A stretch of 64,000 nucleotides of DNA, from IMG/VR virus record IMGVR_UViG_3300018478_000073; one strand, written 5' to 3'. Shown one piece after another: positions 543 to 63,994 of the stretch; position 1 is the stretch's first letter, and each line of letters opens with the position of its first letter. The notes beneath the pieces were generated by a model that searched no databases, was not told the DNA's origin, and worked only from the letters and a program-made list of their open reading frames with translations. This DNA is from an uncultured virus (IMG/VR IMGVR_UViG_3300018478_000073) (taxonomy: Duplodnaviria > Heunggongvirae > Uroviricota > Caudoviricetes). Position numbers and translations under genes: made by a program.

Positions 543-2720
543 ATGTTTAGAAAGAAAGCAATAGCAATGGGGGTATTAGTCACGATAGGGTCAACTTCAT
601 TGACTGGATGTTCTGGAAGTGAGATTGCAAGGTTAAATTCTATGAAATCTCTAAACTCTGAGGCAGATAATACAGATTATTCAATGACTTTAAATGAGAA
701 GCAGTCTTTAATATACGCTAGTGTAGCTGAAAGAACTTTATTAGATTTAAGTATTCTTGATAACTGTTCAGATGAAGAGATTCAGCAGGTAAAACAGTAC
801 ATGAATAATGTTGATTCGCAGTTATCAGGCTCATTGAGTAAGGATAATGGTGTTATAGATTCTTGTTTTACCGATTATCTATTATCTGAATTTGAGAAGT
901 CACCTTACTACTGGCAGAGAACAAGAACAGCAATCAGAGGTATTGACTCAACATCAAGAAGTATTATTGTTGATGTAACTTACAACACTATTGGGTTTGA
1001 GAAAGACGTATTAGGTGATTCATTTATAGCAAAGGGTTCACCAAATTACACAGAGAAAGAGGAGGTAAGGTATAACAGGTGGTGTGATTTGCTTGATGCT
1101 GAAATGAATGGTAATTCAGACTATCCTCGTATGTTAGATGAGTTTGTAAAAGCATACGGAAAACCAGATGATATTATTGCTTCACAGCGTAATTTAGGTT
1201 TAACTGAGCAGATTTTTGAAACAGGTAATCAACGTACGTATACTGGTTTGGTAGATAATGACTTCGACCAACAAGGGGGTAGTATGACAGTACGGTACGT
1301 TTTAGTACCTAAGTATGTGCTAGGTGTAAACTTGGGTATGGAGTGTAAGCACATGTATGTAACTGATTATGAGGTAACAAATGACAAAACTAAGAAATAC
1401 GATACATTTAAGGAAGATGGATACACAACGATAACAGATAATGTGTCAAAAGTTATTAATAGTTACTTCAAATGTATTGATGAAGCAGACATGAGTGGAT
1501 TATACAAACTTACTGATAATTTTAATTCAGTAGATAAGTACTATCAAGACTTATTTGATACGACATATACAAAGCATGGGGCTTTTTCAGTTTCATTATT
1601 TGACATTGAGGGTACTCATGTAAAAGCAGGTGTAAAGGTAGCAAGCAAGGTAAGAGCAAAAGGTTCAAATATGACAATGCCAAACTACACGGACAGGTAT
1701 TACGTAGAGCTTGAGCTTGTAGATGATTCACTAAAGGTAACAAATATGACTTTATTGTCTCGTAAGTTAGAGGGTGAGCCTGCAATTACAACTGAGGAGG
1801 CAGGTAAGGAAGGGTTTGTTGCAAGTATTGACTTAAGCAATAAAGACAAGTCTGATATAGAGAAGTTAATATGTGATTTCAGTAGTTTACAGTTATTAGG
1901 TGATGATAAGTCAGACAAGTTCATGAGTATTGTCGACTATAGTATGTCAGAGAAAAAGCTAGACTCTGCTAAGAAAGATATGGTTTCATTAGGGGGTACT
2001 AAGAAGGTAGTTTGGTTACAGAATTATCAGCAAGGTACGTCAAACTACGCAAGTGTAAAATGTAGGGAGTTGTTCCAGCAGGAGGACAATAGTATAATTG
2101 AGGCAACGGTAAACTATGAATTTATTTCAAAAGGGGATAAATGGTATATTTATGACTACAATGTATTATCTTCTTTGAAGTTAAATACAACAAACCTCAC
2201 AACATCAAATTCCTTGTGCTATGTTACACCAGGTAAGGTAGAGCAGTATACCAGTCAGATTGTATCTTCAAAGGGAGACAAGAAGGATAAGGCTGATATT
2301 GCTGAGGGTGTAGTATTTGAGCATAGTATAGTAGAACCAGTACTGAAAAATGGTACTAAGGAGCAGGGTTTGGTTAAGTTGAGTGCCAATAACTTTACAG
2401 AGGCACAATTAAGTGATGTAATTAAAGAGCTTGGTATAAAGGATTTGTCTATTGAAGATATTGATAACTTTGACAGTAAGGTAGGTTTATCTGAATCAGA
2501 CTCTATGATGAATATGTGTAAGAGTATAGGTTCTTACTACTATAATAAGACAAATAATAGATACTCAGAATCAGAGTCAAAGGAAGAGAGTGATTCTATT
2601 GACGGAGTAGTAGCTGATTTCAAAAAAGAGGCTACAGAGGGTATCAAAGGTTCTGATGATTCGACACTCAAGGATACACTTAAGGCGTTTGGAAACTTCA
2701 GTTCAAAGGCACTAAAGTAA
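543..2720 (+). CDS. Lipoprotein, 725 aa, unknown function
   Basis: AGGAGG RBS; MFRKK + hydrophobic stretch + lipobox LTGC. Confidence 0.8.
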   Translation: MFRKKAIAMGVLVTIGSTSLTGCSGSEIARLNSMKSLNSEADNTDYSMTLNEKQSLIYASVAERTLLDLSILDNCSDEEIQQVKQYMNNVDSQLSGSLSKDNGVIDSCFTDYLLSEFEKSPYYWQRTRTAIRGIDSTSRSIIVDVTYNTIGFEKDVLGDSFIAKGSPNYTEKEEVRYNRWCDLLDAEMNGNSDYPRMLDEFVKAYGKPDDIIASQRNLGLTEQIFETGNQRTYTGLVDNDFDQQGGSMTVRYVLVPKYVLGVNLGMECKHMYVTDYEVTNDKTKKYDTFKEDGYTTITDNVSKVINSYFKCIDEADMSGLYKLTDNFNSVDKYYQDLFDTTYTKHGAFSVSLFDIEGTHVKAGVKVASKVRAKGSNMTMPNYTDRYYVELELVDDSLKVTNMTLLSRKLEGEPAITTEEAGKEGFVASIDLSNKDKSDIEKLICDFSSLQLLGDDKSDKFMSIVDYSMSEKKLDSAKKDMVSLGGTKKVVWLQNYQQGTSNYASVKCRELFQQEDNSIIEATVNYEFISKGDKWYIYDYNVLSSLKLNTTNLTTSNSLCYVTPGKVEQYTSQIVSSKGDKKDKADIAEGVVFEHSIVEPVLKNGTKEQGLVKLSANNFTEAQLSDVIKELGIKDLSIEDIDNFDSKVGLSESDSMMNMCKSIGSYYYNKTNNRYSESESKEESDSIDGVVADFKKEATEGIKGSDDSTLKDTLKAFGNFSSKALK

Positions 2721-2735
2721 GTCAGGGGGTATAAC

Positions 2736-3017
2736 ATGAGGGTAACAAGAGTAAGTATAGATAGTTACACACCAAATGAGGAAATTAAGGCTACAGCTAC
2801 TGTAGTCTTAGATAACTCATTATGTATTCATCATGTACACGTAATAGGTGGTATTAACGGTGATTTTGTAGGGTTTCCTAATACAGGTTTAACAAAAATG
2901 TGTAATAACTCAAAGCGTTATACAGATATTGTACATCCTTGCAGTGAGACATTACGGTCTGATATAACAGAAAGAGTATTAAAAGAATATAGGGGGTATT
3001 CAAGAGACGGCATGTAA
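2736..3017 (+). CDS. spoVG: SpoVG-family nucleic-acid-binding protein
   Basis: KATATVVLDNSLCIHHVHVI..G..G.FVGFP and Y.DIVHP...LR..I...VL..Y match the SpoVG pattern. Confidence 0.85.
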   Translation: MRVTRVSIDSYTPNEEIKATATVVLDNSLCIHHVHVIGGINGDFVGFPNTGLTKMCNNSKRYTDIVHPCSETLRSDITERVLKEYRGYSRDGM

Positions 3018-3039
3018 AACATGACCGTCTTTCTTTTTT
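3005..3039 (+). terminator. Intrinsic terminator
   Basis: AGACGG-CATG/CATG-A-CCGTCT stem followed by T tract. Confidence 0.7.
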
Positions 3040-3102
3040 CAAGGTATATGAAGATACATTATATGTAAACTATAATTTTCAAAAATAGTAGGAGTGGATT
3101 TT

Positions 3103-4689: not shown

Positions 4690-5005
4690 TGATATCGTAT
4701 TGAAATATATTGACTACGCTGAAGACTTAATGAAAAAGAATAATATTGATTTTACGGTATTTGAGTTTAAGGAATTATTAAGAGTATCCCTATGTTATGG
4801 GTTGAATTTGCCTTACACTGTAGGTATTACTATAGACAATAAGTATATAAAGGAATGTTCAAAGGTTATATTGAAGGGTATCAAAACAAGTAACTGGACA
4901 ATAGACCATAGAATGGGGGTATTGGAGGCTTGCCTAAAAGCGTTAGTTCTTGCTATAGCCAATGCAGAAAGAGAGGAGTTAAACGATGTCGGATTGTTCT
5001 TATAA
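4679..5005 (+). CDS. Hypothetical protein
   Basis: AGGAGG RBS then ATG 4679; overlaps both neighbours. Confidence 0.65.
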   Translation: MHYNDIVLKYIDYAEDLMKKNNIDFTVFEFKELLRVSLCYGLNLPYTVGITIDNKYIKECSKVILKGIKTSNWTIDHRMGVLEACLKALVLAIANAEREELNDVGLFL

Positions 5006-5759: not shown

Positions 5760-5787
5760 TTAATTGAAGAAATATTATAAGGGGGTA

Positions 5788-5816: not shown

Positions 5817-5821
5817 AACCT

Positions 5822-6173: not shown

Positions 6174-8327
6174 ATGGGTAGTTATAATGAAAATTCTATT
6201 GATTTAAAGGAAGGTGCTAAGCGAGTACGAGATAGACCTGCGGCTATCTTAGGTAGTGATGGTTTAAAAGGTGCTCAGCATGGTGTGATTGAGTTGTTTG
6301 GTAACGCATCAGATGAGGCTTCAGCAGGTTATGGTAACAGAATAGACTTCAAGCGTTACAAAGATGGGGGTATTAGTATCCGTGATTACGGAAGAGGTGT
6401 ACCGCTAGGTTGGAACGAAAAGCGTCAGTCTTACAACTGGCATCTTATTTACAACGAAATGTACGGTGGGGGTAAATATGATGACAATCAAGAAAAATTA
6501 GCAAGTATTACAGATTGGTCTACTTTCAATGAGAAAGATTATAACTACTTGTATTCTGTAGGTTTGAACGGTTTAGGTGCTTCTGCGACACAGTATTGTT
6601 CTGAGTATTTCCACGTAGTAAGTATCAGACGGGATGAAAAAACAGGTAGGAATTACAAGTATTGGATGGACTTTGAAAAGGGATTGCCTATTATCGATGG
6701 ACAACCAGTTGACGTATTTGAGTCGAGATATGATATGTCACAGTACAATCAGGTTATCGAAGAAACAGATGAGCCAACAGGTACATTCATTCACTGGAAA
6801 CCAGACTCGGACGTATTTTCAGATGTAGATATCAAGGCAGAGTGGCTTAAGAATCTCTGTATGGATATTGCATACACAGCTAATATGGAGATTAACTTCG
6901 AAGATGAGGAATCTGGTGAATCAGTACACCTAGATGGGGGTACTCTAAGAGACTTACTTATTGCAATTAACAGTGGAAAACTTCATACGGATGAAGAGGG
7001 AAACACTTTTGTGCTTGAGATGTCAGACTTTTCACATGGTATAACAAATAAGAGTGGAAAGTCAACTATTTGGGTAGCAAAAAGTGAGATTGCAATGTCA
7101 ATTGCTAAGAATACAAAGTCAACTGGCTCTGCATGTTTTCACAATCTTGTAAGAATGCAAGAGGGTATTCAGTATTCTGCTGTTGAGGATGCGGTAAGTG
7201 ATTTTCTGGTAAAACACGCTCGTTCCAAGGGGGTATCACTACAGTATCAAGATTATGCAGGTGTATTTGCATTTGTAGTGAGTTCGTTTTCTAATATTGC
7301 ATCATTCCGTGGTCAGACAAAGGATGGTGTAGATGATGCGTTTATCTACACATTTATAAAGGATACTGTAAGTACAAGACTGGAACTTGAGTATGGAAAA
7401 GGGAATAAGGAAATTATCAGTGCTATTGAGAGGGTTATTGACCGTGCTAATATGCGTATTCAGCTCAAGGAGGCTGAGAAGCAGATTCGTACAGTCAACT
7501 CATTAGTAAACAAAAGAAAGAATCCAGAGAAGTTTGCGACATGCAAAGAGTACATGAACAAGGATTACCATAGAACTGAGTTATGGATTACAGAGGGAGA
7601 TTCCGCTAAGGGCTCTGTAATGCAGGCACGAGACAGTAAATTTCAGGCTGTATATCCAATTAGAGGTAAGAGTTTGAACATTTTAAAATCCTCAATTCAG
7701 AAGATGTTGGCAAACAAAGAGGTAATGGATATCATTTCTTTGTTGGGTACAGGTATTGATTTGAATATTGAGGGTATTGATTTATTCGATATCAATAACT
7801 TAAAGTTTGATAAGATTATTTTTGCAACAGATGCCGATGTTGACGGTTATCATATCAGAATCTTATTATTTGTATTGCTATACAGATTAGCACCAAAACT
7901 TATTACTGAGGGACATGTATTCATTGCTGAGACACCTAGATATGGGGTAGCACTAAGAGACGGAACTACAAAGTATGTACTCAACGAGGAAGAGAGAGAC
8001 GAGGTATTAAAAGAGTATGCAGGTCAGGTAGTGGACATCAAGCGGTTTAAAGGTCTTGGTGAGGTAGACCCACCGATTCTAAGAGAAACAACAGTTGGTG
8101 TAGAGCATAGAAGATTAATTCCAGTAACATGTGACTTAGATAATGATTTAGAGTGTGAACTTATTGATGCATTATTCGGTGAGGATAAGCACAAGCAGAG
8201 AAAGAGTATTCTCACAACAGTATTAGGTCAGGGTGTAGAAGATGACTTTGCCGAGGCTGTGGACATGTACAATTCTATTGATGAGGAGGATATCGATGAA
8301 GACACAGAAGTTAGGATGTGGGGATAA
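6174..8327 (+). CDS. gyrB: Type IIA topoisomerase B subunit (GyrB/ParE-like)
   Basis: GHKL motifs ELFGNASDE, DYGRGVP, GLNGLG; TOPRIM motifs ITEGDSA, PIRGK, TDADVDG; RFKGLGE. Confidence 0.92.
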   Translation: MGSYNENSIDLKEGAKRVRDRPAAILGSDGLKGAQHGVIELFGNASDEASAGYGNRIDFKRYKDGGISIRDYGRGVPLGWNEKRQSYNWHLIYNEMYGGGKYDDNQEKLASITDWSTFNEKDYNYLYSVGLNGLGASATQYCSEYFHVVSIRRDEKTGRNYKYWMDFEKGLPIIDGQPVDVFESRYDMSQYNQVIEETDEPTGTFIHWKPDSDVFSDVDIKAEWLKNLCMDIAYTANMEINFEDEESGESVHLDGGTLRDLLIAINSGKLHTDEEGNTFVLEMSDFSHGITNKSGKSTIWVAKSEIAMSIAKNTKSTGSACFHNLVRMQEGIQYSAVEDAVSDFLVKHARSKGVSLQYQDYAGVFAFVVSSFSNIASFRGQTKDGVDDAFIYTFIKDTVSTRLELEYGKGNKEIISAIERVIDRANMRIQLKEAEKQIRTVNSLVNKRKNPEKFATCKEYMNKDYHRTELWITEGDSAKGSVMQARDSKFQAVYPIRGKSLNILKSSIQKMLANKEVMDIISLLGTGIDLNIEGIDLFDINNLKFDKIIFATDADVDGYHIRILLFVLLYRLAPKLITEGHVFIAETPRYGVALRDGTTKYVLNEEERDEVLKEYAGQVVDIKRFKGLGEVDPPILRETTVGVEHRRLIPVTCDLDNDLECELIDALFGEDKHKQRKSILTTVLGQGVEDDFAEAVDMYNSIDEEDIDEDTEVRMWG

Positions 8328-8898
8328 GATTGTATTTTTAGATATCGAGACCACTGGGTTATCATACTCAGTGGACGATATCATTGAGGTAGGTGCATGG
8401 TTGTATTGTGACGGAGTAGCTATCAATAAGTTTGAGAGGAGAATTAAGCCAGAAAGATATGTAAGTGAGACAGTAAGACGTATTACTGGAATCTCAAACG
8501 AGGACTTGGCTGATTGTGATACGATGCAGAATGTATTACCTGAGTTCTTCGATTTTGTAGGGAGTAATGATATAGCAGGGTATAATATCCAGTTTGACTA
8601 CAAGTTCTTATGCTACAAGGCGAAGGTATTAGGCTACGACTTTACATTAGGGGGTATGCGTAGAGGTGTTGATGTCTTAAAATCTGTAAGGAAGTGCTTC
8701 GACTTACCAAGTTATAAGTTAGGGGACGTATGTGTATCATTAGGTGTTCCATCAGAGCCAGACAGATTACATACTGCACTGTATGATGCGTATATGACAA
8801 AGCTAGTATATGATAGGTGCAAGTATGAAATTCCATATTTGCTAGATGATACAAAGTATGGTAGACCAGTTATAACAGATACGTTAGACCTATTTTAG
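8296..8898 (+). CDS. DEDDh 3'-5' exonuclease (DnaQ/PolC-exo-like)
   Basis: FLDIETTGL, GYNIQFD, HTALYDA; GAGGAGG RBS before ATG 8296. Confidence 0.9.
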   Translation: MKTQKLGCGDKIVFLDIETTGLSYSVDDIIEVGAWLYCDGVAINKFERRIKPERYVSETVRRITGISNEDLADCDTMQNVLPEFFDFVGSNDIAGYNIQFDYKFLCYKAKVLGYDFTLGGMRRGVDVLKSVRKCFDLPSYKLGDVCVSLGVPSEPDRLHTALYDAYMTKLVYDRCKYEIPYLLDDTKYGRPVITDTLDLF

Positions 8899-8907
8899 GG
8901 GGTAGTT

Positions 8908-9432
8908 ATGAGGGTTTTAAAGAAAAGTAAGGTATTGAAACTTATACTTACATTGCTACCATTATCCTTAGTAGTAGTTTATGTTGCATGTTTTATGTTA
9001 GATTTTATAGGATTATATGGTGTTGCTAAGACAAACAGCAATAAAATAAAGTCGGACAAGTCTGTAATAAAAATTGTGGAGTATGAGGATAAGGGTAAAG
9101 GTGAGTATAAGCTAGTGGGTTTAGACGGGGTAGTACAGAATGTAAGTAACCCAACCATTACATTGACATTAGGTAGTAACGCAAATATTTCTTACTACTC
9201 AAAAGACGGTAATGCTATTATGACACCGTTAGGTAAGGATTTCTGTGATAATTATCTAATACATAGTAATATATGGGTAGTGTTAATGTCTTTAGTACCA
9301 TTATCATATGTAGTTTTATATGCTACTAGTGGAGATAAAAAGACTTTACCAAGAAGATTAGCAATTTGTGGGTATGGCGTTAGTTATATTTTAATATTCC
9401 TGTGTTTCGCATTAGTTTACACATATTTTTAA
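8908..9432 (+). CDS. Membrane protein (about 3 TM)
   Basis: Three hydrophobic segments. Confidence 0.7.
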   Translation: MRVLKKSKVLKLILTLLPLSLVVVYVACFMLDFIGLYGVAKTNSNKIKSDKSVIKIVEYEDKGKGEYKLVGLDGVVQNVSNPTITLTLGSNANISYYSKDGNAIMTPLGKDFCDNYLIHSNIWVVLMSLVPLSYVVLYATSGDKKTLPRRLAICGYGVSYILIFLCFALVYTYF

Positions 9433-9461
9433 GAGATACTCTTAAAAGTACTGACATATGC

Positions 9462-9490
9462 TTGACTTTTACTGATATAAATGGTATAAT
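9462..9490 (+). promoter_or_regulatory. SigA promoter for topoisomerase A subunit gene
   Basis: TTGACT-17-TATAAT, TG extension. Confidence 0.8.
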
Positions 9491-9519
9491 AACAATATAA
9501 GAATTTGAAAGGAGTCATT

Positions 9520-11649
9520 ATGGACAGTTTAGATAAGTTACAAATAACTGATGGTGTGAGGTATCTTACTAGTGGTTATATAGATTATGCTGAGGAGGTA
9601 ATTTCTGAACGTGCTATTGTAAATATGTATGACGGTTTAAAGCCAGTAAACAGACGTATTTTATGGACAGCTAAGACAAATAATTGTGATAAAAAGTTTA
9701 GAAAAAGCCAGAGATTAGCAGGTGATACATTAGGATATCATCCTCACGGAGATGCTTCAATATATAAGGCAAGTATTCCTATGGTAGACAGCAGAGGAGC
9801 TCAGGCTTTCCCTACATTAAAAGGTTTTGGTTCTTTTGGAAATATTTCATCTGGTGAGTCTGCATCTGCACCAAGATACACGGAGGAGATGTTACACCCT
9901 AATTCAGTGGAATTTTTTGGTGAGTTAGACGGTATCAGGTTGATTCCAAACTTTGATGGAACATTAAGCGAACCAGAGGTACTTCCAGTAAGTTTTCCTA
10001 ACGTACTGGTGAATGCTTCAGAGGGTATTGCTATTGGTTTTAGCAGTAAGATTCCATCTTTTAACTTTAATGATGTAATGGACTTGTGTATTGAGTATAT
10101 TGATGACGGTGAATGCCACACGGAGATTTACCCAGACTTCGTAACAAGGGGGTATTACATCAAAAACAATAAAGAGATTAAGAAGTTAATGAGAGCAGGA
10201 AAGGCTTCTATTAAGTTAAGAGGCAAAGCAACAATACAGGGTAAGAATATCCTTATTACAGAAGTACCTTATGGCAAGAGTGCATTAACTCTTAAGAAAG
10301 AAATTGAAAACAGTAATATCCAAAATATTAAGAGTATTGGTAACGTATCAGACTATACAGGTGCGGGGTTACTTATCGAGTGCAAGTCAAAGAATGCAGT
10401 AGATGGTGTATTGTATGATATCTATAAGAACACAAGTTTTCAGTATTCATATGGAGCAAACTTAGTTGTTGTTAAAGATGGTTCACCTAAGCAGATGGGT
10501 GTATGGAGTATTATCGGAGACTGGGTAGAGTGGCGAAAGGGGGTAGTCGAGAGACACCTCAAACAAGAGCTTGATTCTCACAAGAAGCGCATGAGAGAAT
10601 GCGAGGCATTTATGAATCTTATCAATCTGGGTGATGTTAAGAATGAATTTGTGCAGAGGGTATCTTTATACGGAAGAAAAGAGGCTACATCTTGGTTAAG
10701 ACCGCATATCAAAGATTTAGTACCAGATGACTTGGTAGAATTTGTGACAAAGCAAAGGTTAGACTACTATCACACAGGGGGTAAATTTGCAACACAGTAC
10801 GAGGCTTCAAAGGAAGAGTTAAGAAATATTGAGACGAAACTTAGTGACCTTGATAAAACCATTAGAGACCAGATTGTAAGGTTAAAGGAAGTATATGGCT
10901 CTAATTTACCTAGAATGACAGAGGTAACAACTATTGACTACGAATTTGAGTCAGAAAAGGAAGAACCTATTAAGGATACCTCTTCATGTGTATATGCCGT
11001 TAAGAATAACTTCTTAAAGAAGCTGAAATACGTGGATATGAGCAGCGAGTACGACTTCCAGTTTGAGGGTACTGCTAGTGATACACTTGTAGCATTCGAT
11101 AATTTAGGACGAGTTTTAAGAATCAACGGACAAGATATTGATATCATGAGTCCTGCTGAAATGGGGTTATACTTACCTAGATTCCTTGCTATGGGAGATG
11201 TACCAGAGGATTACAGGGTAATGTGGATGGGTGTAGTTGATGGAAGTGAAAAGACACTTATTTACAATGATGGTACTGTAGGTTTCTTGGATACATCAGA
11301 GTGGCTTGAGTCAAACCGTCAGGTGAGAGTACTTAAGAATGGTGTAAATTCGGAGGCAGGTAATGTAGTAGCCGTACTTGATGAGTTACCAGAAGCACTT
11401 GTAGCATTAGACAGCCAAGGGGGTATTGGTTGGGTTGACACAAGTACAATCAAACATAAATTCAGAACAGCAAGAACAAGAGTGTGGAGTTTGAGAAAGG
11501 GTACTGTACTTGCAGGATTATGCTGTTGCAGTCTTGTCGATGTAACAGTAATGTTGAATAATATGAGCAATTACGAAGCACCAAGAATTAGAAATCTTGC
11601 TTCAGCCGATGACTACAGAGGTGATGGAACTGAGTTTATGAGTTTATAA
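9520..11649 (+). CDS. gyrA: Type IIA topoisomerase A subunit (GyrA/ParC-like)
   Basis: DGLKPVNRRIL, YHPHGD, catalytic APRYTE, LVNASEGIAIG; AAGGAG RBS before ATG 9520; no GyrA-box seen, so may be ParC-like. Confidence 0.9.
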   Translation: MDSLDKLQITDGVRYLTSGYIDYAEEVISERAIVNMYDGLKPVNRRILWTAKTNNCDKKFRKSQRLAGDTLGYHPHGDASIYKASIPMVDSRGAQAFPTLKGFGSFGNISSGESASAPRYTEEMLHPNSVEFFGELDGIRLIPNFDGTLSEPEVLPVSFPNVLVNASEGIAIGFSSKIPSFNFNDVMDLCIEYIDDGECHTEIYPDFVTRGYYIKNNKEIKKLMRAGKASIKLRGKATIQGKNILITEVPYGKSALTLKKEIENSNIQNIKSIGNVSDYTGAGLLIECKSKNAVDGVLYDIYKNTSFQYSYGANLVVVKDGSPKQMGVWSIIGDWVEWRKGVVERHLKQELDSHKKRMRECEAFMNLINLGDVKNEFVQRVSLYGRKEATSWLRPHIKDLVPDDLVEFVTKQRLDYYHTGGKFATQYEASKEELRNIETKLSDLDKTIRDQIVRLKEVYGSNLPRMTEVTTIDYEFESEKEEPIKDTSSCVYAVKNNFLKKLKYVDMSSEYDFQFEGTASDTLVAFDNLGRVLRINGQDIDIMSPAEMGLYLPRFLAMGDVPEDYRVMWMGVVDGSEKTLIYNDGTVGFLDTSEWLESNRQVRVLKNGVNSEAGNVVAVLDELPEALVALDSQGGIGWVDTSTIKHKFRTARTRVWSLRKGTVLAGLCCCSLVDVTVMLNNMSNYEAPRIRNLASADDYRGDGTEFMSL

Positions 11650-12503: not shown

Positions 12504-13997
12504 ATGAGTGATGAAGTTTTATTGACACCAGAGGAAAGGTTACAGGAGTTATCAGATATTATTCTTGCTAATATTGTGTGTAAAGATGACGACTCTATGG
12601 AAAAGAGAAGATACTTATATGGTCAGTTACCAGTTAAGGTTTTCAGAGATGAGAATTTTGTATTATATGGTATACTGTTTAACTTTAAAGATAAGGGTAT
12701 CACACCGGATGAGGATTTCATGAAAATGTACTTATTAAGAAATACAAAGCAGTTAAAAGATAGTTACGAGTACATTGACTTATCTGCTTATGCAGACCAA
12801 GATGAGAACCCATTCGTAGGGTACATCTCTGCAGTAGTCAAGAGATTTATCAGATTAAAGGGCATGGATAAATGCTCATACTCTGACTTTAAATTATATA
12901 TTGAGAAGTATAAGTCAGAGTTTAGTTCTATCGAGATGAATAAGGCTTACTCACTTGCAAGACAAATCTTATACGAGGGGGTACAGATAGGAAAGAGGTT
13001 TTATCAAGGGTTTGAGGATAGTAATACTTACATTAAGCATGTAAGCGGTAATATTGAGAATTTGCTTGATAATTCAATTGGGGATGGTTTTATTGATAGT
13101 AGAAAAGAGGCTATCATAGACAATGAGAGGTCACAGCCAGAGAAGATAGGAGACTTCGATTTAATTGACGAGTTAAATGAAGCACTAGGGGGTATTTATA
13201 CATCACTTTTATACAACGTTATTGCCCCTACAAAGGGTGGTAAGTCAAAATTCACTGCAAGGATTGTCCATACTGCTGTCGTACGTTATGGTACTAATGT
13301 TTCTGTATGGGCATATGAGGGTGGATATGAAGCATGGTGGGCGCAGTTAAGAGCAATTCACTATGAATATATGTATATAAGAAATGCTTCATCAGTAGGA
13401 GATAAGGTTGCACCTTTATCGCAGGCAGATATTTTACTTGGTAATTACCCATCTGAGGCTATTAGAAGTCTTGAAGAGGCTTCAAGATTGGATTTATTTA
13501 CAAATCCTAATTATGGGGTAATTAATATGATTAACAGACCATTTAATGTCGAAACATTTATAGATGATATTGATACATCTGTCAAGACAAATATGTCAAA
13601 AATGGTGTTGATTGATTACTTACAGTTAATCAATAGTGAGTCTAAGGGTAAAAAGTCAAATGAGATCGTAAAAGACGCTTACAAGAAGGCTTTACAGTAT
13701 TGTAAAGACAGGAATGTAGCTATTATAACTCCTGCTCAGTTTACTCAGGAATTCATTAAGGAGATGGCACATAGTAAGAACGGTGGTTCACCAGAGACCC
13801 GTACCGCAGGTGGAGAAAGTTCTGAAGTTATACGAGCTTCTGATATTAATATAGCACTGTATGCATCTATCGATGACTTACAGCGGAGGGAAATGTCTAT
13901 TATGAGTGTACCGTCACGTTTGTCAGTTTCATTTCCAATGTTTCAGATTTATGCTGACTTATGTAGTTGTGTATTCTCAAGTATAGTAGATGAGTAA
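12504..13997 (+). CDS. dnaB: DnaB-like (SF4) replicative helicase
   Basis: APTKGGKS Walker A, VLIDYLQLI, IITPAQ, ASDINIAL. Confidence 0.85.
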   Translation: MSDEVLLTPEERLQELSDIILANIVCKDDDSMEKRRYLYGQLPVKVFRDENFVLYGILFNFKDKGITPDEDFMKMYLLRNTKQLKDSYEYIDLSAYADQDENPFVGYISAVVKRFIRLKGMDKCSYSDFKLYIEKYKSEFSSIEMNKAYSLARQILYEGVQIGKRFYQGFEDSNTYIKHVSGNIENLLDNSIGDGFIDSRKEAIIDNERSQPEKIGDFDLIDELNEALGGIYTSLLYNVIAPTKGGKSKFTARIVHTAVVRYGTNVSVWAYEGGYEAWWAQLRAIHYEYMYIRNASSVGDKVAPLSQADILLGNYPSEAIRSLEEASRLDLFTNPNYGVINMINRPFNVETFIDDIDTSVKTNMSKMVLIDYLQLINSESKGKKSNEIVKDAYKKALQYCKDRNVAIITPAQFTQEFIKEMAHSKNGGSPETRTAGGESSEVIRASDINIALYASIDDLQRREMSIMSVPSRLSVSFPMFQIYADLCSCVFSSIVDE

Positions 13998-18227: not shown

Positions 18228-18260
18228 TAGGGGATAGGTACTTAGCCTACCCCCTATTTT
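18228..18260 (+). terminator. Intrinsic terminator
   Basis: TAGGGGATAGG/CCTACCCCCTA imperfect stem + TTTT. Confidence 0.7.
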
Positions 18261-18278: not shown

Positions 18279-18848
18279 ATGTTATCACAGTTAGAAAAGT
18301 ATGTAATAACATATGAGGACAATACAGGGAAAATAGTATGTAATATACCAGATTACTATGATATGTGTGTAGCACCGTTAGCAGGTAAGTTCGCACAGTA
18401 CTCGTTTAATAATGGAGCTGGTAAGGTTGTTTGCCCAATACACGATGACCATGACCCATCATTAGGTTTAATAAGGCATAAGAATGTACCTAAGGTTATG
18501 ATTTATCACTGTTTAGGGTGTGGAGCTGCAGGTACTATTGTAAGGTTTCATCAGCGTATAGAGAGTAAGTACCACAACAGAGATATATCAGTAAAAGAGG
18601 CTTGTATAGAGCTATGTAAGATATTCAACATAGATGTACCGTCTGATGATGTATTTTCTAGTGAAGACTACGAAAAGAAGTATGAGTACTTACTCAGTAG
18701 AGTAGATGTTCTACAAGGAAGGTACACAAGACAGGAATTTGCAGAGAACCTACTATCTTTAAGAAAGCAGGGGGTATCATTAGAAAGGTTAAATTCAGAG
18801 TGCATAAAAATGATTGCTACGGAGAAGGGGTTGTACACATGGAGTTAG
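18279..18848 (+). CDS. Stand-alone CHC2 zinc-finger (DnaG primase Zn-binding domain) protein
   Basis: CPIHDDHDPSL...YHCLGCGAAG; no TOPRIM domain in 189 aa. Confidence 0.8.
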   Translation: MLSQLEKYVITYEDNTGKIVCNIPDYYDMCVAPLAGKFAQYSFNNGAGKVVCPIHDDHDPSLGLIRHKNVPKVMIYHCLGCGAAGTIVRFHQRIESKYHNRDISVKEACIELCKIFNIDVPSDDVFSSEDYEKKYEYLLSRVDVLQGRYTRQEFAENLLSLRKQGVSLERLNSECIKMIATEKGLYTWS

Positions 18849-19771
18849 GTATTGCAGTAGAGGATGATTTTCCAGTTATAGAAGAGGTAAAAATTGAGTT
18901 ACCAACAGTAGAGAAGTTATTGGGGGTATTAGGTTCTGGCGTAGGTCTTGATATTGCAAAGAATCATACTGGTGTATGTTTGTTTGAGAATGGTAAGGTA
19001 GAAAGGTATGGTTTGGACCTAGATACCTATGATAATACAGATTTTCACGCACTTTTCAATATGAGGTTATCACTAAAAAGAAAGCTGTCTGAAATACTCA
19101 GAGGAAAGGAACTGAATTATTGCATCATAGAGGATGTATACGGTGGGGAGAACTTTGACACTGTGCAGAAGCTAGTTACTTTAAACACAGTAATAGACGA
19201 GTTAATCTACGAGGGGGTAGTTAAAGTAGATAATTTTTATCGTTGGGCTGAGGCAAAGTGGATGAAGTGGCTTAGAAAGGTGTCTGGAGAGAGGCACTTA
19301 TTAAAAGCAAAGTACGAGACACAGACATTGCTTGAAGAATTACAGGATAGCTTTTATATTAAAAATTGCAATGCAAGTAATCGCATCAAGAAAGAAATTT
19401 TCTTTGAAGATATCTGTGATGCAACTGGTATGCTATGTGCTTTAGCAGTATATGTAAGTAATGGTAGTGAAGAGGATGAGTCATACAGAAAGCTGTCCAT
19501 AAAAGACATTAAGATGTTTTATTTAGACGCTGCATGTGATGACTTGTATATAGATGATGAGAAAGCAATGAGTACAAGCTGGACTGTAGTACCAGATAAC
19601 TATAGGGTACTGGATAAGTTTATAATTGATACAGCTTTATCTAATCCAGATAAGGTCTTAGCTATGGATTTGCCAGTATCTAGGTTAGGTACTTTTGGTA
19701 TTGAGAATAGGTTTAAATTTTATCCCAGTGGCAAGGGGGTATTAGTTTGGTACTTAAGCAGGAGGAGTTAA
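18839..19771 (+). CDS. RuvC-like Holliday junction resolvase with C-terminal extension
   Basis: GLDIAKNHTG, IIED, DICDA acidic motifs. Confidence 0.7.
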   Translation: MELGIAVEDDFPVIEEVKIELPTVEKLLGVLGSGVGLDIAKNHTGVCLFENGKVERYGLDLDTYDNTDFHALFNMRLSLKRKLSEILRGKELNYCIIEDVYGGENFDTVQKLVTLNTVIDELIYEGVVKVDNFYRWAEAKWMKWLRKVSGERHLLKAKYETQTLLEELQDSFYIKNCNASNRIKKEIFFEDICDATGMLCALAVYVSNGSEEDESYRKLSIKDIKMFYLDAACDDLYIDDEKAMSTSWTVVPDNYRVLDKFIIDTALSNPDKVLAMDLPVSRLGTFGIENRFKFYPSGKGVLVWYLSRRS

Positions 19772-20698: not shown

Positions 20699-22051
20699 AT
20701 GAATTTAAGTATTCAGATTGGTGATTTTCTAGGTTTTTGTGATTTAAATGGGGTTGACGCATTAACTTCAGAGCAGGTTGAGGAATTAGAGGGGTATGTA
20801 GCAAGGTGTCAGGAGTCTATGAATCAAGGAGAAGCACTAGTTGTAGATGCAATCTATGATAGGATGGTAGAGATTCTAAGACAGGTAAATCCAGATTCTG
20901 AGTTAATTACCCACATTTGGGAGGAAAGTACTGACTTCAATTTTGATGATACTGACTATTTATTTAAGAAGTATCCTATGTACTCAATCCAGACTGTAAA
21001 GTCATTTGATTGTAAGGAGTTAGATGACTTTGTAAAGAGATTACCAGATGGTAGCTTTGATGTTCACTTATCTTATAAGGAGAACGGGTTCGGTATCAGA
21101 CTTGTGTACTCAAATGGAGAGTTAGTAAAAGCTAGAACAAGGGCACGTTCTTCTAATGGTAGGGATATAACAGCTCAGTTAAAAGTGGTGTTAGGGGGTA
21201 AGACTCATATAGAGGATTTAGAGGCTTTTGACCTGTGTGAAATAAGAGGAGAACTTGTATTACCTTTTGAGAATTTTACACTAGCAAAGGAGTTTAATCC
21301 AAGTATCGTTTCACCATTCAGTGCGGTGTCCTCAATGTCAAGAGATTCAGCATCCGAGGAAGAGTGGGGGTTATTAAAGTTTGTAGGTTACACTTTTATT
21401 GCAGATGACTTTCATGTCGAAACAAAGGATATGATGTACAGATTTATTGAGGAGCTAGGTTTTGAGACACCAGTATCTTGGGTAATAGAGGACTTATCGA
21501 GAGATACATTTATGAATGACTTGCCAGGTATTGTATCTGATTGTGAAGATGAAGCAGAGGAGTATGACTACTATACAGACGGTTTAGTTCTTGAGTTAAA
21601 CGACAGAGAATTATTCAGACGCATGGGAGACAATGGTAGCAATTATAATTATGGTAATATTGCGCTAAAGGTAGGTTACTGGAGACAGGATGTGTATTAT
21701 GGCTATGTACAGACAATTCTCTGGACAAAGGGTAAAACAAAGTTAAGTCCAGTTGCTATTATTGCAGATGAGCCAGATATAATTGAGTTTGAAGATTATG
21801 GAGACCATATGTATATTGGAAGTATCAAAGAGGTTTCTAATTTGGATGAACTTGGCGTAGTTACAAGCGCAGGCAACAGGGTAAAGAGAGTTCCACTTTA
21901 CGAGCCAGCTAACTTGCTAATGTTAGATGCAACGAAGGGTAATGTGTTATACTTTAGGTATGGTGGTGAAGCAGGAGTTATACCTTGTTACTCTAATGGT
22001 ACTCCATTAGTCGAAGGTAGACTTCAGCAGGAGTTTGAAGACATATATTAG
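20699..22051 (+). CDS. ligA: NAD-dependent DNA ligase, N-terminal half (adenylation + OB domains only)
   Basis: DAIYD (domain Ia), PMYSI, adenylation YKENG, ARTR...GRDIT, EIRGE, DGLVLE, IALK, LSPVAI; ends without Zn finger/HhH/BRCT. Confidence 0.85.
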   Translation: MNLSIQIGDFLGFCDLNGVDALTSEQVEELEGYVARCQESMNQGEALVVDAIYDRMVEILRQVNPDSELITHIWEESTDFNFDDTDYLFKKYPMYSIQTVKSFDCKELDDFVKRLPDGSFDVHLSYKENGFGIRLVYSNGELVKARTRARSSNGRDITAQLKVVLGGKTHIEDLEAFDLCEIRGELVLPFENFTLAKEFNPSIVSPFSAVSSMSRDSASEEEWGLLKFVGYTFIADDFHVETKDMMYRFIEELGFETPVSWVIEDLSRDTFMNDLPGIVSDCEDEAEEYDYYTDGLVLELNDRELFRRMGDNGSNYNYGNIALKVGYWRQDVYYGYVQTILWTKGKTKLSPVAIIADEPDIIEFEDYGDHMYIGSIKEVSNLDELGVVTSAGNRVKRVPLYEPANLLMLDATKGNVLYFRYGGEAGVIPCYSNGTPLVEGRLQQEFEDIY

Positions 22052-23362: not shown

Positions 23363-23469
23363 GGGGGTATGTCTGTAGTACATTAATTTTTGGGGTATTC
23401 ATTATTTACTATAATATATTTATATTATAAAAAGTATTTAGACGTGTGAATAAAAGGAGGTTCATTAAA

Positions 23470-24786
23470 GTGGATGAGAATTTAGCAAAAGAGTTCGACG
23501 AGGTATTTTTAGGTGATGAGGCAGCCAGTGCTGTTTTAAAGTTAACTTCATCTTCGTTCACGAGGAGTATTGAGCGTATTAAGGTATCCCAGATAGGTAC
23601 AACACATCCTGTAAAGCAAGGTAGACAGGACACAGCTTCAGGCTTAACATCAACAATAAAGGATTTGGGGGTAGTAACTCCAATTCATGTAATGACAGTA
23701 GATTCAGATTCAGAATCTGAGGACTACAAGTATGTTTTGCTAGACGGTTTACGAAGGTTATGGGGAGCATTAAAGAATGGTCAGACTGAGGTAGATGCTG
23801 TAGTATGGGATTTTGAGGACAAGGATAAAGGTATTGATTTTGCTTTAGTGATAACCCTAATACTTAATAGGGTACAGAAGCATACTTGGAAAGAGATTTG
23901 GGATTTATATCGTATACTTGAGATGCAACATCAGCTAACTCCAGGTACTTTAGAGTATTTGTTACAGTTAGAGGGTGGAGATGCAATGAAGTTAAAGGAT
24001 GTAATGCTCTGCGAGTACGAGGAGGTAAAACAGGCACTACTTAACAATGAGAAAAACCTAGAAGGTTGTTATAAAATGCTACAGAAGTTAAGAAAGGAAG
24101 AGGACAAGTTATACAAGGAAGATACAATGGGTATAACTGATGTAGTGGAAGAAGCAGAAGAGCTTGCAGGAAATAATCTTGAGGTTGAGTCCGGTCAGTT
24201 AACAGATGAGGACGTAAGAGAGTTGTTGGAAATGTCAAGTAACTTAGATGAGTTAGAGGATGTTGATGCAGATGACTTTGACTCGTTAAATACACCAGAT
24301 TCAGATTTTGTAGACCAACAAAAAGTAGGAGAGAGACACGCATTACCACCTGAGTTAAGAAATTCTGTATTACAAAGAGATGACTTTGTGTGTCAGTGTT
24401 GCGGTATTAAGATGATAGGGGCACGTGCAGGTCTAACAGCCGCACATCATATTCTTCCTGTTCATGTAGGTGGTAAGGATAAGATGGAAAATCTGGTGAC
24501 ATTATGTGTAGGTTGCCATATCACTCTTCATAACATGGAGAGGAATGGGGGTAGCATTATGATGTCAAAGGAAGACTTTGACGAGTTAAGTGAGGCAGAC
24601 CAGTTATCCTTAAAAAGGGCACTTAAGCTTGCAAGAGTAGCTATCGAGGCAGATAAGAGAAAGGGAATGAATAAAGAGGCAGTACGTAAAGCAACACAAG
24701 ATGCTATAAGACACCCAATGCCTGGCGTAGGTTTAAAAGAAACTCAGCAGTTATACGATAGCTATAAAAGAAGTAAGGAGGAATAG
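23470..24786 (+). CDS. ParB/Srx N-terminal domain fused to HNH endonuclease domain
   Basis: PIHV...LLDGLRR (ParB-N); RDDFVCQCCG...HHILP..VGG....NLVTLCVGCH (HNH); GTG start behind AGGAGG. Confidence 0.85.
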   Translation: MDENLAKEFDEVFLGDEAASAVLKLTSSSFTRSIERIKVSQIGTTHPVKQGRQDTASGLTSTIKDLGVVTPIHVMTVDSDSESEDYKYVLLDGLRRLWGALKNGQTEVDAVVWDFEDKDKGIDFALVITLILNRVQKHTWKEIWDLYRILEMQHQLTPGTLEYLLQLEGGDAMKLKDVMLCEYEEVKQALLNNEKNLEGCYKMLQKLRKEEDKLYKEDTMGITDVVEEAEELAGNNLEVESGQLTDEDVRELLEMSSNLDELEDVDADDFDSLNTPDSDFVDQQKVGERHALPPELRNSVLQRDDFVCQCCGIKMIGARAGLTAAHHILPVHVGGKDKMENLVTLCVGCHITLHNMERNGGSIMMSKEDFDELSEADQLSLKRALKLARVAIEADKRKGMNKEAVRKATQDAIRHPMPGVGLKETQQLYDSYKRSKEE

Positions 24787-54337: not shown

Positions 54338-54408
54338 AGATTAGGAAACAGTGCTATGCATAGATGTAAATGATTACTACTTTGTTGCTGTATAAGGGGG
54401 TATAGAAA

Positions 54409-58830: not shown

Positions 58831-59043
58831 ATGCCAGAGGTTGGTGATATTATTCGATGCATTAGTGGCAGAAAAATTGGTGAAAGACTATTTATTGAGG
58901 ACATAGTAATTAAGGAAAGTAAGAAGTACTATCAATGCAGTATTATATGCACTGGTTTATTCGATACCGTTTCGCCAGTATCTAATAAAGTTGAAGTATC
59001 TGATGCTGATTTTAGAGAATTTTGTATAGTAGAGGAGAGGTAG
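58831..59043 (+). CDS. Hypothetical protein
   Basis: GGGGGT RBS. Confidence 0.6.
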   Translation: MPEVGDIIRCISGRKIGERLFIEDIVIKESKKYYQCSIICTGLFDTVSPVSNKVEVSDADFREFCIVEER

Positions 59044-59045
59044 CA

Positions 59046-62644: not shown

Positions 62645-62720
62645 ATATAAAATACAGAATATCTTGCTAAACATACTGATAAAGTATTGCTTTAGCATGA
62701 TACTTCTGTTTTATTTATAT
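62645..62720. other. Long imperfect inverted repeat
   Basis: ACAGAA-TATC-TGCTAAA-ATACT / AGTAT-TTTAGCA-GATA-TTCTGT. Confidence 0.65.
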
Positions 62721-62869
62721 AATAGAAAATAAAAAATTTAATGTATTTTCATAAAGTGTATTTCCTATCGATAGTTTGTTAGTTGTTGTGGTTTTATTTA
62801 CGTGGGTAGTAACAATTTCACATGTAACTATATGACATACACTGTTTAAGAGAAAGGAGAAAAAGTCAT

Positions 62870-63496
62870 ATGTTTAAAAAAGTGTACATGAATAGCATGT
62901 TTAAGTGCCTAAGAAAAATTACAAAGAATACCAAGAGGTATGGTATTACGGAGGGTACGATTCTGAATATGCTGTTAGCACAGCATCACCTAGAGGGGGT
63001 AGAGGATAAGACGGAAAGTCAGAAGAAAGACTTAAGTTTATTCAGTAAGTTTGTTGAGGAAAATATTGATAAGGTAACTGATTACAAGAAAAAATTTAAT
63101 CTTATTGATAGAGTGCAGTTAGTATTAAAAAGAGCAGTTCCGATTGCGTGTATTCACTTTTTAAGATTAACATTGATTGGTCAGGGTATCATATTACCAT
63201 TCTATGTCAATGCTTTGTTGTTAGGTATTCTTGCATACCTGTACATAACTGCCTTACTGGGGGTACTATTTACATTAGTACCAGATGTAGTGGACTTGCC
63301 TTTGCAGTTACCATGTATGGACAAGGGGGTAAAAATCAAGTCTATGAATATGTTAGGTTTGTGCAATAAGGATTACTACATTGAAAAGGCAGAGTCATTA
63401 GGTGATGATGATTTGTTGTCAGCATTAAGAGATAGTGGTAAGACAGACTTAGTAAGATACCTTGCATACATTAAATTAAGCGAGATGGAGGATTAA
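62870..63496 (+). CDS. Membrane protein
   Basis: AAGGAG RBS; two hydrophobic segments. Confidence 0.7.
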   Translation: MFKKVYMNSMFKCLRKITKNTKRYGITEGTILNMLLAQHHLEGVEDKTESQKKDLSLFSKFVEENIDKVTDYKKKFNLIDRVQLVLKRAVPIACIHFLRLTLIGQGIILPFYVNALLLGILAYLYITALLGVLFTLVPDVVDLPLQLPCMDKGVKIKSMNMLGLCNKDYYIEKAESLGDDDLLSALRDSGKTDLVRYLAYIKLSEMED

Positions 63497-63499
63497 GTT

Positions 63500-63994
63500 G
63501 TGTATCTTACGTTCAATGAGAATGACCTTATTTCATTAGTGAGGTATGGTGAGTGCAAGTCATTTGTGAGTACTGGGTACTTGAAGTTATGTTGTTATCT
63601 TGTAAGAGATGAAAGTCTTATAAGTGAGGAGAATAAGAACTATGTAAATTCTGTATTAAACAGTAAGTCATTAAAGGTTGTAAAAGATGAGGCGTACTTC
63701 GCAAGTGTACGGGATATGGTTAAAAGATATATCTTTTTTAGTATTTTGTTTTTAGTTTTGGTGTTATCTTTACTTAAGGTAACTACGTGTGGTGTTTTAT
63801 GGTTACAGGCGTTAGGTTATATTTGCTTGGCAATGTCTGCATTTGTATCATTTAGGTACGTATATAATCTGCTAGTTATGCACAGTGTTCCAGTAGTATT
63901 AGGGGGTAGGTTTGCTACAGCTCTATGTAAGAAAATATTATTTAGGGATACATTGCTCACTATCTTAGAATTGACAATGATAAGGGAAAATTAG
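63500..63994 (+). CDS. Membrane protein
   Basis: GGAGG RBS, GTG start; two hydrophobic segments. Confidence 0.7.
   Translation: MYLTFNENDLISLVRYGECKSFVSTGYLKLCCYLVRDESLISEENKNYVNSVLNSKSLKVVKDEAYFASVRDMVKRYIFFSILFLVLVLSLLKVTTCGVLWLQALGYICLAMSAFVSFRYVYNLLVMHSVPVVLGGRFATALCKKILFRDTLLTILELTMIREN

Follow-up and report, generated by a model that had tools for sequence, protein, structure and literature searches.

The 64,000-nucleotide stretch of DNA analysed here (IMG/VR record IMGVR_UViG_3300018478_000073, filed as an uncultured virus; hereafter the window) is, judged by its colinear core and its one-strand genes, a 64-kb piece of a giant plasmid-like element of Firmicutes, akin to pXO16 of Bacillus thuringiensis. 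Open reading frames (ORFs) of at least 50 amino acids on the + strand cover 91.8% of the window, all real genes lie on that strand, and the GC skew of the whole is +0.30. The commonest 7-mer of the window is GGGGGTA, with 125 exact matches, 124 on the + strand and one on the - strand. The + copies form an array whose first copy starts at 569 and whose last occupies 63902-63908 (Table 1), with a mean spacing of 515 bp and a longest gap of 1,923 bp, from 52473 to 54396. An earlier sequence-only reading of this DNA had arrived by hand at about 124 + copies and one - copy (18248), placed roughly every 500 bp with a longest gap of about 1.9 kb, and exact matching bears out these figures.

The word, its flanks and its placement

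In 100 dinucleotide-preserving shuffles of the window GGGGGTA was found 5.57 times on average (sd 2.58, maximum 13) and no shuffle reached 125, in agreement with the handful of copies expected earlier from base composition. Each one-mismatch variant of the word has at most 22 copies, and runs of G occur as 290 G3, 51 G4, 129 G5 and 2 G6. Runs of at least five G are followed by TA in 124 of 131 cases (122 of the 129 G5 runs and both G6 runs); the seven exceptions accord with the previous estimate of fewer than about ten. The base 5′ of the heptamer is A in 91 copies and T in 28, thus A or T in 119 of 124, and the base 3′ of it is T in 73 and G in 24. The full word is W-GGGGG-TA-K (W, A or T; K, G or T).

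Genes contain 102 of the + copies; of the 22 intergenic ones, 14 stand in Shine-Dalgarno (SD) position and 8 do not. Within genes the word is read as GGG-GGT-A 47 times, as xxG-GGG-GTA 46 times and as xGG-GGG-TAx nine times, and the three frame examples singled out in the sequence-only reading are correct (ATG-GGG-GTA at 569 and GGG-GGT-AGT at 1275 in ORF 543-2720, AGG-GGG-TAT at 2992 in ORF 2736-3017). When synonymous codons were shuffled within each gene (300 times), a mean of 12.5 copies remained (sd 3.6, maximum 24) against the 102 observed, so that the enrichment survives the very shuffle that had been named as able to refute it. Gly-Gly before an Axx codon is spelled GGG GGT in 47 of 69 cases and Gly-Val after a G-ending codon is spelled GGG GTA in 46 of 56, with GGG making up 17% of the glycine codons of the window (221 of 1,313). 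The gaps between copies have a coefficient of variation (CV) of 0.67, compared with 0.99 ± 0.09 for random placement, and none of 5000 random sets was as even; seven gaps are shorter than 100 bp where 21 were expected, and the largest gap stands against 2,774 bp expected, 3.2% of random sets having one as small. Given the shuffle and spacing results, the enrichment is real and acts at the nucleotide level, with selection on spacing, and since a large share of the synonymous freedom of the element is spent on the word, it must matter to its carrier. The idea that the word is a by-product of base composition, codon usage or a glycine-rich proteome could draw on the GC skew and on a surplus of the relevant dipeptides (Gly-Gly 109 against 87 expected, Gly-Val 135 against 98). 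However, it is refuted by both kinds of shuffle and by the spacing, G5 runs outnumber G4 runs, the one-mismatch variants are few and intergenic copies exist, which leaves it with practically no chance of being right.

Two of the nine xGG-GGG-TAx copies also stand in SD position for the next gene, which brings the copies lying 4-12 nt 5′ of a start codon to 16 of 124; the word does not behave as an SD sequence, the usual SD of the window being AGGAGGTA. The lone - copy belongs to an intrinsic-terminator-like stem (hairpin at 18226-18264) and is not a member of the array. Intergenic + copies also serve as the 5′ arm of terminator-like hairpins, at 50178-50199 and likewise at 36538 and 50847; one such hairpin reads AGGGGGTAC-ATCA-GTACCCTCT, then a T run. 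The word seems to have been fitted in where a G-rich stretch was needed anyway, as in the hairpins and the 16 SD sites. The copy at 5781 abuts a perfect sigma-70-type promoter 5′ of the GyrB-like gene (GGGGGTA-TTGACA, 17 nt, TATAAT; 5781-5822), and four further promoters with a 12/12 consensus and a TG extension lie on the + strand at 42481, 45005, 50303 and 51910.

Table 1. Positions of the word array and of the principal genes in the window
Feature	Position	Strand	Basis or remark
GGGGGTA array, 124 copies	569..63908	+	Exact matching
Starts of copies, part 1	569, 1275, 1992, 2725, 2992, 4066, 4313, 4915, 5531, 5622, 5781, 6366, 6468, 6936, 7229, 8650, 8898, 10148, 10539, 10777, 11419, 11941, 12977, 13188, 14051, 14707, 14841, 15328	+	
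Starts of copies, part 2	16008, 16096, 16425, 17232, 17969, 18770, 18922, 19213, 19735, 19947, 20436, 20687, 21194, 22051, 23363, 23667, 24547, 25029, 25288, 26043, 26291, 26881, 28379, 28797, 29583, 29898	+	
Starts of copies, part 3	30485, 31315, 31540, 32089, 32368, 32793, 33523, 34522, 34795, 35230, 35853, 36538, 37223, 37373, 37685, 38327, 38558, 39928, 39961, 40196, 40736, 40925, 41407, 41549, 42215, 43447, 43812, 43982, 44281	+	
Starts of copies, part 4	45431, 45970, 46211, 46860, 47126, 47270, 47858, 48348, 48702, 48981, 49118, 49647, 50179, 50847, 51000, 51851, 52266, 52473, 54396, 54974, 55228, 55279, 55693, 55824, 55987, 56065, 56149, 56724	+	
Starts of copies, part 5	57433, 57559, 58502, 58818, 59526, 60480, 61023, 61858, 62527, 62995, 63259, 63325, 63902	+	
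Lone minus copy	18248..18254	-	3′ arm of a hairpin, then TTTT, between two + genes (GGTAGGGGATAGGTACTTAGCCTACCCCCTATTTT)
DnaG-type CHC2 zinc-binding protein, stand-alone, 189 aa	18279..18848	+	Pfam Zn_ribbon_DnaG E=9.5e-9; proposed reader of the word
DnaB-like (SF4) replicative helicase	12504..13997	+	Pfam DnaB_C E=7.9e-7; PHROG 19 and 239; kept in 35 related loci
RuvC-like nuclease with extra C-terminal domain	18839..19771	+	Model pLDDT 80.1; best Foldseek match T. thermophilus RuvC 4ep4_A, E=1.2e-6
Lipoprotein-looking ORF at head of module	543-2720	+	Unrelated to the FtsK-domain protein in the same position of pXO16
SpoVG	2736-3017	+	E=1.2e-19; head of core module, as in pXO16
SNF2-family helicase	3094-4689	+	Pfam SNF2 and Helicase_C; head of core module, as in pXO16
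GyrB/ParE-like, type II topoisomerase pair	6174-8327	+	Pair used as marker for finding relatives
RNase T-like exonuclease	8242-8898	+	Within topoisomerase block 6174..11649; small ORF before GyrA/ParC-like
GyrA/ParC-like, type II topoisomerase pair	9505-11649	+	Pair used as marker for finding relatives
NAD-dependent DNA ligase (adenylation domain)	20699..22051	+	Pfam/PHROG scans; candidate Okazaki-joining equipment
ParB_N + HNH nuclease	23446..24786	+	46% identical to pXO16 counterpart; candidate alternative reader or nickase
RNase H1	37235-38026	+	Grouped with both ligases as candidate Okazaki-joining equipment
T2SSE/PilT-like ATPase	54989-56059	+	Pfam
Ligase-like protein	59022-59957	+	Grouped with NAD ligase and RNase H1 as candidate Okazaki-joining equipment
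N6-adenine DNA methyltransferase-like, 620 aa	60734..62602	+	Pfam N6_Mtase E=1.6e-4; SAM motif VWDMACGTG, catalytic NPPY

The word in relatives and round the pXO16 circle

Fourteen ORFs of pXO16 match the window in the same order at 19-48% identity, the shared colinear core comprising SpoVG, the SNF2 helicase, GyrB, GyrA, the DnaB-like helicase, the CHC2 protein, the RuvC-like protein, the NAD ligase, ParB_N-HNH, the ligase-like protein and the methyltransferase. The window's GyrA-like protein, 36% identical to that of pXO16, has thousands of metagenome homologues on contigs of up to 545 kb, and the sole public sequencing run containing the window is a bovine gut metagenome. Pfam and PHROG scans of the window found no virion proteins, the phage and plasmid collections held no close DNA relative of positions 1-20000, and a single-protein scan of viral contigs gave no relatives; an alignment scan of viral contigs gave only relatives at 28%, which carry just an SD word. 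Matches from a scan of genome contigs, none above 33% identity, were set aside because they were cellular gyrA/parC genes from Bacteroidota and other groups. An IMG/VR pattern scan for three closely spaced copies gave 121 stretches, which proved to be repeat clusters of local extent on unrelated contigs rather than polar arrays running through an element. A GyrA match in Monoglobus pectinilyticus 'plasmid 18' (L240, NZ_OY725742.1) was likewise rejected as a relative: its ParE/ParC-like genes stand amid glyA, efp, RNase J and queuosine synthesis genes on both strands, and the region resembles a chromosome more than it does a pXO16-type plasmid.

In order to find out which words the relatives carry, top words were searched for de novo against an order-2 Markov expectation in the fetched loci of at least 8 kb among L028-L077 (shorter loci and L078-L099 were left out). 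The top word includes GGGTA in 32 of 36 non-cellular relatives, with 0-6 minus copies, and in none of five control loci (cellular gyrA, L074-76; distant viral contigs, L001-2). L028 (60% GyrA identity) carries GGGGGTA at 36:0 (+ to -). The word is GGGGTAG in L029-35 and L037 (11-37 : 0), GGGTATC in L040, L045-47 and the distant L069-72 and L077 (23-41 : 0), GGGTAT in L044 (60:0), GGGGTA in L031, L041 and L059 and, as AGGGGTA, in L055 (26-38 : 0-1), and GGGTATTT in L060 (9:0). In L042, L052-54, L056-58, L063 and L065 it is GGGTA alone (25:5 in L057, 84-115 : 2-6 in the others), and there the density is about 5 per kb, compared with about 1-2 per kb for words of six to seven bases. The remaining four, L050, L051, L061 and L067, are members of the family by synteny though their words are weak or different; GAGGGT reaches 13:1 in L050 and 17:1 in L067, L051 and L061 have no clear word, and these elements may use another word or have lost the system. 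On the helicase tree the variants switch repeatedly between close relatives, and a conserved core with drifting details fits a private protein-DNA specificity. In all sampled relatives every gene lies on one strand and the word is co-oriented with it; minus-strand ORFs in these loci were dismissed as antisense shadows with + type skew.

The alignment of the window with L028 covers 5,956 codons at 57% amino-acid identity, and in it 8 of 33 aligned window copies stand at the exact orthologous position, where 0.05 would be expected by chance; the remaining copies have turned over while the density is unchanged. The positional conservation that the sequence-only reading had proposed to check is found for a part of the sites and not for the rest. 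Together with the synonymous-site selection, the even spacing and the family-wide occurrence, these shared sites uphold its central claim of a selected, oriented DNA signal. No description of such a word was found in the literature searched, which did not include the primary pXO16 papers of 2015 and 2018.

pXO16 (pBTHD789-1 / pAM65-52-2-350K; NZ_CP013277.1), from B. thuringiensis sv. israelensis, allowed the word to be followed round a complete circle of 349,600 bp. It resembles the window in its colinear core and in having all genes on one strand, and differs in carrying a G4 word where the window has G5. GGGGTA occurs there 657 times forward and five times in reverse (reversed control word 104:3), with a mean spacing of 531 bp, a CV of 0.71 and a largest gap of 2,071 bp over the 657 sites. 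TA follows 650 of 838 G4 runs, W stands 5′ in 627 of 657 copies and G or T stands 3′ in 554 of 657, and the word of pXO16 is W-GGGG-TA-K; G5TA occurs seven times. When the circle is divided into 35 bins of 10 kb, every bin has 12-27 + copies and no more than one - copy, so the orientation never flips, and the GC skew lies between +0.10 and +0.28 in all bins. The strand flip at origin and terminus that had been looked for along a full replicon is thus not seen on this plasmid, and the uniform orientation with positive skew round the circle indicates a one-way process. No convincing minus-strand genes were found in pXO16, in line with the common orientation of all its coding sequences and the 'phage-like nature' described for it (PMC6199540, PMC9673590). 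In the same sources pXO16 is described as transferring single-stranded DNA through a distant type IV secretion system (T4SS) (PMC6199540), in about 3.5-4 min (PMC6199540, PMC9673590). Plasmids mobilised by it require an intact and correctly oriented single-strand origin (PMC6199540); neither a relaxase nor an oriT is reported for pXO16, which moves plasmids lacking oriT (PMC9673590).

This uniform orientation excludes a guide of the KOPS/SRS type that converges on a terminus, as had been proposed among other possibilities. KOPS (GGGNAGGG) and SRS (GAGAAGGG) of FtsK/SpoIIIE are also G-rich, enriched and highly skewed oligomers that give DNA a direction, but their orientation reverses at origin and terminus, their density near dif is about one per 16 kb and their skew is about 90% (PMC3384302), whereas the family word does not flip round the circle, is about 30 times denser, exceeds 99% skew and is lacking on co-resident plasmids. 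A modified version, in which the word guides the DNA-pumping ATPase of a conjugation machine one way round the whole circle and so feeds DNA from any entry point, would suit the orientation and the lack of an identified relaxase or oriT (PMC9673590), and candidates for such a pump are an FtsK/SpoIIIE-domain protein that heads the core module in pXO16 and the T2SSE/PilT-like ATPase of the window. We nevertheless consider it unlikely. The sequence-reading gamma domain of FtsK is undetected in the pXO16 protein even at E<=5 and none was found in the window, where the ORF of the same position is unrelated, and the density is far from that of KOPS or SRS. In addition, transfer is reported to be single-stranded and T4SS-like, and plasmids without the word are still mobilised (PMC6199540).

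The co-resident large plasmids of the same B. thuringiensis strain carry GGGGTA at 55:54 (360 kb) and 15:21 (235 kb), no more often than the control word. Because they lack the enrichment, the word is private to the element and not a mark imposed by the host, and because pXO16 shows 657:5 beside plasmids without enrichment or polarity, its reader is probably encoded by the element and is not a host Chi or KOPS system. A Chi-like 'self' signal, at which a helicase-nuclease arriving from one side would stop degrading and so protect DNA ends or rolling-circle tails, must be weighed here. Short Chi sites can be frequent, as is AGCGG of B. subtilis, and pXO16 encodes a UvrD-type helicase and a non-specific endonuclease. 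The word is also, like known Chi, G-rich, polar and enriched on the G-rich strand (PMC3384302). Like Chi of RecBCD/AddAB it is a polar, over-represented, species-specific sequence, but Chi is a property of the host nuclease that marks all host replicons, and the plasmid counts show that the word is not the host's Chi; this makes a host form of the Chi-like site entertained in the sequence-only reading unlikely. Moreover, a PD-(D/E)XK nuclease domain of RecB/AddAB type (PDDEXK_1) was not found in pXO16, the word differs between close relatives, and we know of no Chi for which even spacing is selected. For a Chi-like signal of the element's own, the prospects appear poor.

The word also points the same way as every gene of the window, of the relatives and of pXO16, and since all genes are on the + strand, each mRNA contains it and so does the non-template strand. 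It could therefore act at the RNA level or be coupled to transcription. Along very long co-oriented transcription units it would then load a factor for elongation or antitermination, or bind a protein with affinity for RNA, for instance SpoVG, which is conserved at the head of the core. The double use as SD sequence, 16 of 124 copies in the window and 24 of 93 in the first 50 kb of pXO16, would speak for such a role, and the GGGGTAG variant resembles GGCGGTAG, the core of the RfaH ops element. However, the SD overlap is incidental, since 0 of 130 copies in the GGGTATC relatives stand in SD position, and the spacing is regular irrespective of gene boundaries. Known ops-type sites occur once per operon, whereas the word recurs every 0.5 kb and inside genes, and no NGN domain of NusG/RfaH type was found in pXO16 or among 59 scanned window proteins, so that neither RfaH nor LoaP offers a good model. 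Four ORF-free stretches of pXO16 (5.8 kb in total, two at zero GC skew) still carry the word at 8:0, or 1.4 per kb. An RNA or transcription signal has, in our estimation, only a small likelihood.

Two ORF-free stretches of pXO16 (1.9 and 1.5 kb) lie within 162887-167323, just 3′ of the Toprim_2 gene (162086-162886), with a GC skew of about 0 and the word on the + strand only. No tRNA genes were found there, one short 11-bp tandem array lies nearby, and the region may be an origin or a control region.

A candidate priming signal and its reader

Beside the word, the family carries a stand-alone CHC2 protein, a DnaB-like helicase, a family-A polymerase and a Toprim protein, and the window adds two ligase-like genes and RNase H1. 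The CHC2 protein of the window also matches PHROG DNA-primase families and the DnaG zinc-binding domain of PDB 1d0q (E=5.7e-4), its residues C52, H55, C78 and C81 are invariant in 13 relatives, its orthologue in pXO16 is 34% identical, and its gene keeps its place beside the helicase module in the family. In pXO16 the toolkit further includes a Toprim_2 protein (E=5.2e-8), a 5′-3′ exonuclease and a clamp-loader-like protein. We tentatively favour, at somewhat less than an even chance, the reading that a split DnaG-type primase starts primers at the scattered copies of the word, which would lie on the strand exposed as single-stranded DNA in one-way replication and in conjugative entry. Three points of this reading are inferred: recognition of the word by the zinc-binding protein, the start of primers at it, and which strand is the single-stranded one. 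W-GGGGG-TA-K would then signal priming on one strand and amount to a single-strand origin dispersed along the entire replicon. The CHC2 protein would read it on single-stranded + DNA, working at the DnaB-like helicase with a separate Toprim catalytic subunit, which is seen in pXO16 and would be encoded outside the window. The RNA primer would start opposite the T of GTA, giving a predicted pppA-C-C-C-C-C and leaving the 3′ A uncopied as in sites of the DnaG/T7 type. The + strand would be the lagging-strand template of one-way replication and also, by analogy with pXO16, the single strand that enters the recipient.

Priming is favoured because the even spacing, with gaps capped at about 2 kb and a site about every 0.5 kb, is on the scale of Okazaki fragments. 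The word lies on the G-rich, gene-coding strand everywhere, which is compatible with a lagging-strand template, and the single-stranded transfer of pXO16 provides a second setting in which one strand needs many primers. A primase site has the form N-T-N, with the start at the middle base and the 3′ base uncopied, and the G-T-A that ends the core in 32 of 36 relatives matches this form; as to a cognate primase, the CHC2 protein is in the window and Toprim_2 in pXO16 alone. CHC2 zinc-binding domains are known for recognising a short word in single-stranded template DNA and thereby setting the start of a primer. In Firmicutes the trinucleotides d(CTA) and d(TTA) serve DnaG as start sites, with the middle base copied first, and residues of its zinc-binding domain, which can act in trans on a separate catalytic domain, set the start trinucleotide (PMC2978363). 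The word shares the TA end and, as proposed here, the start at the middle T, and the window protein has a DnaG-type CHC2 domain; a trinucleotide, however, needs no genomic enrichment, whereas the word specifies 8-9 positions (W, G5, T, A, K) and has G rather than C or T before TA.

The sites of the T7 gene 4 primase (GGGTC, TGGTC, GTGTC) are similarly short and G-rich, end in GT plus an uncopied base and are read on a single strand by a zinc-binding domain, and GGGTC differs from the family core GGGTA in the last base alone. The T7 site is given as 5′-(G/T)2GTC-3′, with a 3′ flank that aids recognition, possibly via the zinc-binding domain (PMC12839067); the variable part of the family word is also its 3′ flank (G, TC, T). 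Zinc finger, Toprim and helicase are joined in one T7 protein, whereas here they are separate genes. A third comparison is with the sso of rolling-circle plasmids. Like the word as proposed here, it would be a strand- and orientation-specific signal at which synthesis of the complementary strand begins once a single strand has been displaced or transferred. A plasmid has one sso, however, a structured stretch of about 150-300 nt recognised by the RNA polymerase or primase of the host, whereas the word is 7-8 nt long and repeated hundreds of times. Orientation of the sso matters for mobilisation by pXO16 (PMC6199540).

Modelling of the zinc-binding protein with the helicase gave a predicted complex with a score of 0.37, the best of three controls having 0.00, and the runs showed at least 66% contact agreement with partner pLDDT of at least 75. 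Of 157 solved complexes 116 reach the mark applied to such scores, as do 2 of 215 mismatched pairs, and passing scores of at most 0.60 were given to 18 of the 157 solved complexes and to both passing mismatches, so that the model hints at a contact only weakly.

This weakness is one of several points that weigh against priming. Pfam scans of the window found no primase catalytic domain, pXO16 has no DnaG catalytic core (PF08275) and just a 266-aa Toprim_2 protein, and the neighbour of the zinc-binding gene is RuvC-like and not a primase. The T7 genome shows neither enrichment nor strand polarity of its own primase sites (+/-: GGGTC 39/55, TGGTC 79/62, GTGTC 43/42), so that selection for such sites across a whole genome would be without precedent. 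A simple priming model does not predict the strict A/T 5′ of the run, nor its exact length, G5 in the window with G6 twice and G4 in pXO16 with G5TA seven times. Since all genes in the window, the sampled relatives and pXO16 share a strand, a role in RNA or transcription predicts equal polarity. The priming site offered as one hypothesis in the sequence-only reading thus gains from the toolkit, from the TA end shared with d(CTA)/d(TTA) and from the likeness to the T7 site, and loses from the lack of strand polarity of the T7 sites to which it had been compared.

The neighbouring RuvC-like protein had been considered as the catalytic half of a primase and was rejected for its fold, with 36 PDB matches at E<=0.001 in Foldseek and a Pfam RuvC match of E=0.086. 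The CHC2 gene is followed by the RuvC-like gene in 17 of 20 loci with CHC2, the pair being seen in the window (18279-19771), L028, L042, L052-56, L058, L060, L063, L065, L069-72, L077 and pXO16 (33700-35193); in L041, L051 and L055 the RuvC-like gene is not within the covered locus. This pairing bears on another possibility, that the word is a strand-specific mark, nicked on one strand by ParB_N-HNH or by the zinc-binding protein with its RuvC-like partner, or methylated on one strand at N6 of its last A. Such a mark could be used for strand discrimination, for starting strand displacement or for generating the transferred strand. Phage T5 is known for sequence-specific nicks in one strand alone, and ParB_N-HNH and the NPPY methyltransferase are among the best-conserved core genes of the window and pXO16. 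The methyltransferase-like protein, whose pXO16 counterpart (107004-108827) is 30% identical over 606 aa, could mark the terminal A, and no relaxase is known for pXO16 (PMC9673590). However, nicking or methylation would leave the 20-fold enrichment and the even spacing unexplained, and we think it very improbable that marking is what the word is for.

If priming is the function, the single-stranded arrival of a 350-kb plasmid that is made double-stranded within minutes would be explained, and DNA recognition by primase zinc fingers could be studied cleanly in a system provided by nature. A broader claim, to which we give roughly one chance in three, is that giant pXO16-like elements carry a private, fast-evolving 'priming code': a replicon of 250-700 kb would have been rewritten, in coding and non-coding DNA alike, so that one of its strands offers a start word of 8 nt at intervals of about 0.5 kb, read by a stand-alone zinc-finger subunit. 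Lagging-strand synthesis and complementary-strand synthesis after conjugation would then proceed on the element's own terms, independent of host primase specificity. Among genome words that are over-represented and strand-polar, a function is established for just two classes, Chi and KOPS/SRS. The word belongs with these and differs from them in density, evenness, one-way orientation, privacy to the element and fast drift; if the claim holds, it would form a third functional class, and its carriers would be the first replicons known to be saturated with selected primase sites. Since a cultivable member exists (pXO16 in B. thuringiensis), direct bench testing is possible. Whatever its function, the word is a signature by which these elements, often filed as viruses, can be recognised, oriented and binned in metagenomes.

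Other genes of the window

Between the helicase and the zinc-finger gene lies a 748-aa ORF (14719-16965) that is kept in relatives at 26-47% identity and for which no family was found in Pfam, PHROGs or the protein atlas. A cell-surface block occupies 29520-40057, with a lipoprotein-like ORF (29520-30527), a 524-aa LPQTGG protein with a membrane anchor (30586-32160), a 1,455-aa protein that matches no family (32161-36528), a sortase (38040-38867) and a signal peptidase (39512-40057). Such cell-surface functions have also been reported for the oral 'Inocle' elements, in which the direction of the ORFs changes at origin and terminus (PMC12340149). Two neighbouring NADAR-domain genes and a full-length homologue of the FtsH protease lie at 46597-49322, and a single tRNA-Met (CAT) gene is encoded on the + strand at 51655-51728.

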